DNA of 32,000 bases, from NCBI GenBank assembly GCA_016840465.1, contig JAEOSH010000008.1, positions 1 through 32,000 of the forward strand. Reading direction: 5' to 3'. Positions 29,473 through 31,555 of this stretch are shown one piece after another. Origin of the DNA: Candidatus Baldrarchaeum yapensis (GTDB lineage Archaea; Asgardarchaeota; Baldrarchaeia; Baldrarchaeales; Baldrarchaeaceae). The position numbers were made by a program, and so were the translations under genes. Position 1 is the first letter of the stretch; each line of letters starts with the position of its first letter. The notes under the pieces are model-generated. The model worked only from the letters and a program-made list of their open reading frames with translations, had not been told where the DNA came from and did not search any database.

Positions 29473-30030
29473 CTACAACATAGAACTCGGATTATGCTCT
29501 TCATGCTCATTAAATCTGTTAACCTTGTAAATTAACCTAAATGAGGAATATTGGAGAACGTTTTTTGGCTTAAAAACTTTGCAAACCTCATCCGGCTCGC
29601 AAAACCCCATTTTTCTCATATTATCGCATGTAAGTTTGTATGCCCCCATAACATCGTCTATGAGACATGCAGCAATGAGATACGAGGCGACAACGGTAAT
29701 TTTATTTTTGCGGAATGCAGCCCTTACACACGGTGGAGCACGTTCGAGATGCGCTCTTAAAGCGAGATTGCGGAGTTTGTCCATTAACAAACATTTTCCA
29801 CGCTTTAACTTCCATATGCAATTCTTACAGATATTTTCTGGTAGAAGCTTGCATAGCTCACGTAATGCGGCGGTACTGAAACCATCACCTCTTAACAAGT
29901 GATAATTTAGTTCCATAAAGTATATAGGATCAAAATGTCCCAGCTCATGCACTAAACTCTGAGCCTCTCGTACTATTGTACTAATATCACATGCCCAGTA
30001 CTTCATATATTGCTCATCGCCCGAGGACAT
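29473..30030 (-). CDS. Hypothetical Cys-rich protein resembling the C-terminal Fe-S domain of primase large subunit (PriL-CTD-like)
   Basis: APPCV...YKLTCDNMRKMGFCEPDEVCKVFKPKNVLQY matches the PPC...Y...C....GxCxPD..C....NP.QY pattern recalled for archaeal PriL. The likely start is ATG 30030 or 30006 (ORF track 30135). Confidence 0.6.
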   Translation of the reverse strand: MSSGDEQYMKYWACDISTIVREAQSLVHELGHFDPIYFMELNYHLLRGDGFSTAALRELCKLLPENICKNCIWKLKRGKCLLMDKLRNLALRAHLERAPPCVRAAFRKNKITVVASYLIAACLIDDVMGAYKLTCDNMRKMGFCEPDEVCKVFKPKNVLQYSSFRLIYKVNRFNEHEEHNPSSML

Positions 30031-30133
30031 GATGTCTCTTTCCCCACTAATTGGTTTCTCCCCTAAACATTTAAGGTCAGAGGTCATAGTGTACCGGGGG
30101 ATATTCTTGGAATTCGGAATAAGTACGTGTTTC

Positions 30134-30877
30134 ATGGGGAATATCTCGGAGAGTCTTCTCCACTACATTAAGGAACTAGGTATATCACACGTAGAGATTT
30201 GTTTCGTCAGGAGAACGGATGTATCGCGATCTGCCGCAATTAAAATCGCAAAAATGGCATATAAAATGGATTTTGGCGTCACAATTCACGCGCCATTTAT
30301 GTACGAGTTCATGGGTACACCGTCATTATACGTACATAGGGGCTCCAAACAGGATGTTAAGGTTCTCATGCGGTCATTAGAAATTGCCGCAATAGCGGGC
30401 GCGGAACTCTTAGTGGTTCATGATGAACCGTTTAGGCCTTATAGTCTGGAGTCAAGGATTTTCTTCTCAGCAATTTCAGAACTGGCGCTCGAAGGAGAGA
30501 AAGAGGGTATAGTTGTGACGGTCGAAAATTGCTGGCAAAGGGTGGGATACCTAGTTAAAGAAATAGAATCTTGCGGAATTAAGAGTCTCGGATTATGTTT
30601 GGACTTGGGCCATGCAAACATTCACATGAACCCCGCTGAGGCCATAAGGGTGGCATCTCCCGTTTTATGCCATGTCCATATCCACGATAACCGTGGAAAA
30701 TCGGATGAGCACTTGCCTCCAAGAAGGGGAACAATAGATTGGTATGCGGTGATGTCCGAACTTTTAAAAATAGGATATAGCGGGATTTGCATCCTAGAAG
30801 TTAATGAACCCAATCACGTGTTGACTCTGAAAGGAATTCTCGAGGAAGTATCAGAAAATTGTAGTCTGACGCTTTAG
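30134..30877 (+). CDS. Xylose isomerase-like TIM barrel (sugar phosphate isomerase/epimerase or endonuclease IV family)
   Basis: TIHAPF, VVHD, VEN, CLDLGHAN, HVHIHDNRGKSDEHLPP, GTIDW and ILEV: the full set of metal ligands. Confidence 0.85.
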   Translation: MGNISESLLHYIKELGISHVEICFVRRTDVSRSAAIKIAKMAYKMDFGVTIHAPFMYEFMGTPSLYVHRGSKQDVKVLMRSLEIAAIAGAELLVVHDEPFRPYSLESRIFFSAISELALEGEKEGIVVTVENCWQRVGYLVKEIESCGIKSLGLCLDLGHANIHMNPAEAIRVASPVLCHVHIHDNRGKSDEHLPPRRGTIDWYAVMSELLKIGYSGICILEVNEPNHVLTLKGILEEVSENCSLTL

Positions 30878-31555
30878 TAGCTGAACGGCAAGTCTGGCGT
30901 TGTCCGTCGCTATTCCGTCAACGCCCATTCTTGCAAATTTGAGCATATTACGCTCATCATTGATCGTCCAAACAAGAACCTCCAAGCCGCACCTATGTGC
31001 AGATCTTATCACTTCTGATGTTGTAATCGTGTATTTGGAAACGACATATTTTGCACGAACCTCTTTACAAACCTCCACCATATTACCTCGAAACCTCGCA
31101 CCGAAAATTACTCCCGTTGTGATAGCGGGACATAATTCATGCACTCGCTGAATGCTATCCTTAATGAAGGATACTATAATGACATCGCCAAGCATGCCGC
31201 AATTCTCAATGATATCTAATACTTTATCCTCTATTCCCGTCTCCTTTATCTCTACTATAAGTTTTCCTCGCATCGAGCGAACAAGTTCAAGAACTTCACT
31301 AAGTAGAGGTATCCTTTCTCCTTTCCCAAAATCAAGTCTTCTCAAATCGTTCAGAGTCATGTCCCTAACGTATCCACTACCACTAGAAGTTCTATCCACG
31401 GTCTCGTCATGTATTACAACTATGTAACCATCTTTAGAAGACCTAACATCCACCTCCACATAATCTGCACCAACCTCTAGAGCTCTCTTTACACTTCTCA
31501 GAGTATTCTCTGGTTCCTCTGCTGGTATTCCTCGGTGCCCTACTATAAATACCAC
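30851..31555 (-). CDS. Glycerophosphodiester phosphodiesterase family protein
   Basis: VGHRG, PENTLRS, VEVDVRSSKDG...VIHDETVDRT, IVEIK, VWTIND and GIATD. Confidence 0.93.
   Translation of the reverse strand: MVFIVGHRGIPAEEPENTLRSVKRALEVGADYVEVDVRSSKDGYIVVIHDETVDRTSSGSGYVRDMTLNDLRRLDFGKGERIPLLSEVLELVRSMRGKLIVEIKETGIEDKVLDIIENCGMLGDVIIVSFIKDSIQRVHELCPAITTGVIFGARFRGNMVEVCKEVRAKYVVSKYTITTSEVIRSAHRCGLEVLVWTINDERNMLKFARMGVDGIATDNARLAVQLLKRQTTIF

Follow-up and report, generated by a model that had tools for sequence, protein, structure and literature searches.

The locus described here raises a simple question. Is a short Cys-rich protein, encoded in the genome of the Asgard archaeon Candidatus Baldrarchaeum yapensis, a detached piece of the primase large subunit PriL, and would such a piece take part in primer synthesis? 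The gene resides in a stretch of 32,000 nucleotides, analysed at its full length and referred to below as the window (Table 1). In the initial annotation the product was regarded as a separate, internally shortened paralog of the PriL C-terminal domain (CTD), preceded by an unrelated N-terminal half. The results reported below suggest, with a probability of about 0.6, that it is a lineage-restricted Asgard protein made of three pieces, which would carry a C-terminal module (C-module) derived from the Fe-S part of PriL-CTD, and work as an accessory or sensor in DNA metabolism.

Table 1. Location of the features discussed in the text; coordinates lacking a locus name refer to the window.
Feature	Position	Strand	Remarks
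CDS of the 185-aa protein	29476..30030	-	ORF reading; stop codon 29473-29475
N-terminal helical module (N-module), residues ~10-57	29860..30003	-	W12, G31-x-F33-x-P35, F38, L45
First metal site (putative), residues 58-80	29791..29859	-	E-L-C60-x7-C68-x2-C71-x8-C80, all four Cys invariant
PriL-CTD-like module, residues 97-165	29536..29742	-	Putative [4Fe-4S] site; basic
DEAD/DEAH helicase, 868 aa	26793..29399	-	MrfA Zn-binding (MZB/DUF1998) domain; N-terminal Cys4 ribbon CPFC...CYEC
Xylose-isomerase-like TIM barrel (AP_endonuc_2)	30029..30877	+	Divergent from the 185-aa gene
Glycerophosphodiester phosphodiesterase gene	30851-31555	-	Converges with the TIM barrel, ~27 nt overlap
Stand-alone N-module + Cys4 proteins	L078:2997-3314, L079:2658-2990	- (L078), + (L079)	Closed or near-closed 2.8-Mb Asgard genomes
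P4/D5-type primase-helicase with N-module, 606 aa	L077:2758-4578 (G321:C27)		Thorarchaeota-type genome
Thorarchaeota-type arrangement	L041:5048-8464 and 24/30 loci L047-L076		Divergent FG-GAP/BBS-like beta-propeller gene, family gene, HD + HD_assoc_2; gaps 3-120 nt

The minus strand of the window carries an ORF of the expected size, encoding 185 amino acids. The same ORF may be read from an alternative ATG at 30135 to give a 220-aa product, but the start at 30030 is preferred, because homologues begin ~10 residues before W12, and because the longer form would overlap the divergent TIM-barrel gene. The true start of the latter probably lies 50-100 nt further in than its first ATG. The C-terminal Cys residues occur in the order originally described (PPC / C / GxC / C), but the spacer separating APPCVRAAF from YKLTC measures 24 residues rather than 21, and contains a fifth, non-conserved Cys (C122). 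The five additional Cys counted in the N-terminal half are in place (C14, C60, C68, C71 and C80), and all but C14 are invariant. The HExxH string HELGH, at residues 28-32, had been suspected to be accidental; judged from the aligned homologues it is fortuitous, since only G31 is conserved.

The 185-aa protein is a genuine gene product, and belongs to a family as yet without a name, restricted to part of the Asgard lineages. Members were identified by profile search in 97 of 400 genomes of the phylum, among which 83 of the 86 genomes of the taxonomic family f7 (Thorarchaeota, Hermodarchaeota or Promethearchaeota in public records), all five of f8, all six of f18, and the genome hosting the window. 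The same search found none in 135 genomes of f9, 31 of f5 and 4 of the window's own order. An exhaustive search of 1.8 billion representatives yielded ~7 true relatives, and a word-based homologue search returned only the query itself. An alignment of 26 sequences, which share 21-83% identity with the reference, shows eight invariant Cys (C60, C68, C71, C80, C101, C135, C144 and C150); F33, P35, F38, P99, A105, Y161 and R165 do not vary either, and the invariant positions number ~15. The Cys pattern is far beyond chance, and the four C-terminal residues, the conservation of which was a point to be checked, are invariant in 25-26 sequences. The protein is matched by no Pfam, NCBIfam or PADLOC family; sequence searches of the PDB gave nothing significant, and no relatives were found among IMG/VR viral contigs. 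The notion of an unrecognised family holds in this respect.

Some matches were set aside. Two large proteins, P0010 (1771 aa) and P0012 (1362 aa), are repeat proteins in which summed weak repeats inflate the E-value, and are not matched by the family profile. Short tblastn matches in Marinimicrobia/Nitrospinales records run from the end of a gene into the beginning of the following one, and fall in no single called ORF. One family copy (G010:C1:799262-799743) is broken by three stop codons (TGA, TAG, TAA), which may reflect either a pseudogene or a fault of the assembly.

The C-module reads R-A-P-P-C101, 33 residues, C135-x8-C144-x5-C150, N-x-L-x-Y161, R165, and is basic (pI 9.4 and net charge +7 in the 185-aa protein; pI range 9.4-10.3). 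In the family, as in short archaeal PriL-CTD (PF04104), the first ligand is set in P-P-C-[IV], and the next three Cys are spaced C-x8-C-x5(6)-C, as in PriL of the same or related genomes. Residues other than Cys match as well, in P-S-C-K-x-[LM], G-[YLF]-C, D-x-x-C and [NH]-[PT]-L-x-Y, and the order of the motifs is the same. The last three Cys of the protein and of the PriL of its own genome align already by BLASTP (E 0.003). The family alignment matched PriL of related genomes in hhalign with a probability of 90.7% (E 1.3e-6), which rose with larger alignments to 93.2% (E 2.9e-7, score 49.9 over 37 columns). In 100 column shuffles of the PriL alignment the score was 13.0 +/- 2.25, with a maximum of 20.3, which places the real value ~16 SD above; the reversed PriL alignment scored 12.8. 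When every Cys was masked as X in both alignments the same register was recovered with a score of 23.6, to be compared with 13.3 +/- 2.1, and a maximum of 20.1, in 60 shuffles. Cys residues contribute about half of the score, but the likeness to PriL is not only a matter of their spacing, because the register survives masking.

PriL emerged also from searches of whole sequence sets, with E-values short of significance. It ranked second (9f26_B, E 0.17) when the C-module profile was run against 177,635 PDB sequences, with the PPC-I motif and the Cys triad both aligned and collinear, and third (E 0.18) when the family profile was run against 18,190 ORFs of the genome itself. The top PDB row corresponded to residues 411-444 of 30ie_B, a "virion nicking-joining enzyme" (E 0.078), the C-terminus of which carries the same C-x8-C-x5-C spacing, with D-x-Y-C; this match is probably due to chance.

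The two ends of the C-module are not equally well anchored. The PPC motifs of the family and PriL align to each other only at a relaxed alignment threshold, and are thus more weakly linked than the C-x8-C-x5-C...Y segment. In the relaxed alignment the family is ~37 residues shorter than PriL between the first and the second Cys; 33 residues separate C101 from C135, versus 72 in the PriL consensus. The proposed shortening of this helical segment, and the retention of the cluster ligands (C101, C135, C144 and C150), are both borne out. No counterpart was found in the family of the PriL-invariant residues H36, R39, G50, D65, Y73 and H77, nor of an Arg at +19. The PriS-binding N-terminal domain is lacking, as had been surmised, and residues 1-96 align to PriL with hhalign probabilities of 0.1-7%.

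The Pfam check, in turn, went against expectation. The DNA_primase_lrg model (PF04104) does not detect, at E <= 10, the 185-aa protein, 13 family members, or any family gene in six-frame searches of five carrier genomes; weak secondary matches in the genomes G038, G039 and G000 fall in unrelated ORFs. Structural comparisons were made with an AlphaFold model of middling quality (pLDDT 74.9, pTM 0.48), a single-sequence model being unusable (pLDDT 42). Residues 90-185 of this model remained without a clear match in Foldseek, VIA-align (wide search and second look) and ESM Atlas, and neither PriL-CTD nor PriX folds came out of Foldseek and VIA-align. Similarly, the PDB, searched by sequence and by fold, returned no chain of PriX. 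The claim of a PriL-CTD paralog is hence upheld at the level of profile comparison, over the small C-terminal subdomain and the PPC motif only, but not by the Pfam model. On balance, the profile data make it rather likely that the C-module is homologous to the cluster-binding part of PriL-CTD.

The N-terminal half was deemed unrelated to primase, and similarity to PriL is indeed missing; yet, it includes a separable module and an invariant Cys4 site of its own, and is reused in part on a primase-helicase of mobile-element type. The N-module is acidic (pI ~5, 4.6-5.0), and residues 11-50 are predicted with block-mean pLDDT values of 83-94. The Cys knuckle which follows may hold either Zn or a second Fe-S cluster. 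N-module and knuckle make up alone proteins of 105-110 aa in another Asgard family, showing that the first Cys4 site is self-contained, and the architecture of the 185-aa protein modular. The genes encoding two of these stand-alone proteins adjoin small Cys-rich ORFs, a small GTPase-like gene and a membrane peptidase-like gene. The N-module alone (family residues 4-56) precedes the D5_N domain in a 606-aa protein which lacks both Cys sites of the family. This protein is matched by TIGR01613 (199 bits), D5_N, DUF5906 and Pox_D5, carries a C-terminal wHTH, and probably belongs to an integrated mobile element. Other relationships were considered and dropped. The N-module is not supported by sequence as a displaced PriCT/Fe-S_N-like domain (hhalign probability 0.1%), nor is the first knuckle as a duplicate of the PriL-like triad (7%).

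The helicase gene starts 73 nt downstream of the 185-aa gene, on the same strand, and the two are possibly co-transcribed. The helicase best matches TIGR03817 among NCBIfam models (389 bits, below the cut-off of 874); in PADLOC it gave BrxHI/SngC-like rows, which cover the helicase core only. The TIM-barrel protein gave a weak CbiR-like NCBIfam row (37 bits). Gene order is maintained in the closest relative of the 185-aa protein (48% identical), found in a contig of 881 nt which includes the divergent TIM barrel, the family gene and the N-terminus of the helicase. The sigma-70 promoter/terminator scan was disregarded, being irrelevant for an archaeon. The context is different in Thorarchaeota-type genomes. 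The HD gene is present in 27 of the 30 loci inspected, in three of which the family gene was uncalled by the simple gene caller, and encodes a distantly dGTPase-like phosphohydrolase; in the remaining 24 it lies directly downstream of the family gene. An actin-like gene occurs 2-5 kb from the family gene in L041, L042 and L045. Neighbours in f8 and f18 are different again. Since the lineages have no neighbour in common, the context does not single out any partner. A complex of a Thorarchaeota member with the downstream HD protein, 4Fe-4S and Zn was predicted with a score of 0.00, which amounts to no answer from the method, and speaks neither for nor against binding.

Primase is not missing in these organisms. 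No priS occurs in the window, as noticed before, but a search for a separate priL was successful, and a complete PCNA-priL-priS operon resides in another contig of the same genome. The PriL it encodes is full-length, and has all four Cys (spacing C-x8-C-x6-C). PriL was found in 41 of 41 related genomes examined; because a complete PriL is present, the 185-aa protein is an addition, not a replacement. The PriL of the window's genome, and those read in family carriers (f1, f7, f8 and f18), are of the short archaeal type; long eukaryote-like PriL proteins, in which the last Cys comes after a wide gap, were seen at relatives' loci L012, L013, L015, L016, L019 and L020. The occurrence of such forms, and of actin-like genes, among the relatives identifies the phylum as Asgard archaea. 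Long and short forms fit the two primase groups described in PMC12770985.

Comparison with known systems helps to define what the family has kept. Two helical subdomains, one larger and one smaller, make up PriL-CTD and have the cluster in between; PriX and PriCT correspond to the larger one (PMC5862659). PriX of Sulfolobales, along with the domains PriCT-1 and PriCT-2 of mobile-element primases, represents part of PriL-CTD in a derived form, either free-standing or fused (PMC5700102, PMC5862659), and initiation requires, in human PriL, the residue R306 of the larger subdomain, located 19 positions past the PPC Cys (PMC5700102). The 185-aa protein differs from PriL since it lacks the PriS-binding domain and its gene is unlinked to priS, and from PriL-CTD because the segment between the first and the second Cys is devoid of the H, R, G, D, Y and H which do not vary in PriL, an N-terminal module and a second Cys4 site are added, and similarity falls below every Pfam threshold. 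PriX is a cluster-free six-helix bundle, with a D-x-R-K-R nucleotide-binding turn. The family would resemble PriX, here compared by description, in being a PriL-CTD derivative found outside PriL itself. In contrast to PriX, which binds the initiating nucleotide through the larger subdomain and has no cluster, it has kept the ligands of the cluster along with the small subdomain, and is without the larger one. PriCT models found no sequence match in the family. As for P4/D5 primase-helicases (TIGR01613, D5_N, DUF5906), only the ~50-residue N-module is shared, and neither a helicase nor a primase domain is present in the 185-aa protein. Since the PriL-invariant residues of the larger subdomain are absent, a role in primase initiation similar to that of PriL-CTD or PriX is unlikely.

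How else may the data be explained? The main rival, to which we assign a real though clearly minor share of the probability, is that the PriL-like metal motif arose independently in a small Fe-S or zinc protein without kinship to PriL. Such a protein may be, for instance, a transcription regulator that senses redox state or metals, and controls adjacent genes through an HTH-like N-domain. In line with this hypothesis, the significant alignment is confined to 37 columns, roughly half of its score comes from Cys, the Pfam PriL model does not see the family, and the gene heads different operons beside a divergent promoter region. Yet, convergence of Cys would not readily account for a register which, upon masking, is recovered above all 60 shuffles, nor for the finding that PPC-[IV], Cys triad and N-x-L-x-Y follow each other as in PriL, or that PriL ranks second or third in two independent searches of whole sets. 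Moreover, an N-module with a pI of 4.6-5.0 would be unusual as a DNA-reading head.

A quite unlikely alternative is that the protein is an extra primase subunit which, similarly to PriX, associates with PriS-PriL and has a share in making primers. The PriL-CTD-like motif and the N-module shared with a mobile-element primase-helicase are compatible with this role, for which PriX, itself a separate subunit similar to PriL-CTD, offers a precedent (PMC5700102). The make-up of the protein is, however, the opposite of that of PriX, which has the nucleotide-binding helical part and no cluster; the H/R, PDF and RYQxEH positions invariant in PriL are absent, a PriL complete with all four Cys is encoded in the same genomes, and the family gene never adjoins priL-priS. 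In addition, no member was retrieved from the majority of Asgard families, although their primase is of the same kind. That the ORF occurs by chance, or is a decaying fragment of a duplicated priL, with no functional gene behind, may look consistent with the lack of family annotation, but this reading has practically no chance and is refuted by conservation: full-length intact copies reside in 90-odd genomes of several families, near-universally in f7, and share the invariant Cys and other positions listed above.

The reading favored here, an Asgard Fe-S accessory or sensor derived in part from PriL-CTD, may be outlined as follows. The protein starts with a helical module of acidic composition, continues with a Cys4 knuckle (C-x7-C-x2-C-x8-C), and ends with a basic module. 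The latter would be a cut-down homologue of the Fe-S part of PriL-CTD, in which the PPC ligand and the small three-Cys subdomain have been kept, and most of the large helical subdomain, the part which in PriL holds the initiating nucleotide, has been lost. C101, C135, C144 and C150 may hold a [4Fe-4S] cluster stapling the short module together, and the basic surface of the module may bind nucleic acid; both cluster and nucleic acid binding are probable. The acidic N-module, found also on the mobile-element primase-helicase, may dock onto a partner protein. A protein endowed with a cluster, a basic surface and a docking module would thus serve DNA metabolism as a small Fe-S accessory factor or sensor, and not as a primase initiation subunit. 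A role as an accessory factor in DNA metabolism, outside primer initiation, is probable, because the N-module occurs on a P4/D5 primase-helicase, and the gene downstream encodes a MZB helicase in the window and in the closest relative, and a HD phosphohydrolase in most Thorarchaeota-type loci.

A broader and decidedly tentative proposal is that these proteins form a new class of small Fe-S factors of DNA metabolism, born within one section of the Asgard archaea, in which the cluster "clasp" of PriL has been split off, and joined to a docking module used also by mobile-element replicases. According to this proposal, a redox-active cluster would report on, or regulate, lineage-specific enzymes, which would be the MrfA/Hrq1-type helicase in the organism studied here, and the HD dNTPase-like enzyme in Thorarchaeota. 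If so, the family would mirror PriX, where the other half was retained.

The family goes unmentioned in two recent surveys on the primases and replisomes of Asgard archaea. Near-universal in Thorarchaeota-type genomes, and yet unannotated, it is a missing entry in the inventories of Asgard replication and repair. The common N-module, in turn, suggests that Asgard chromosomes and the mobile elements they host have traded sequences. What the Fe-S cluster does in primases is still a matter of debate, and the Sulfolobus primase works without it (PMC5700102). A protein carrying only the cluster-binding part of PriL-CTD, separated from the part which binds the nucleotide, would be a minimal system to learn what the cluster module does.
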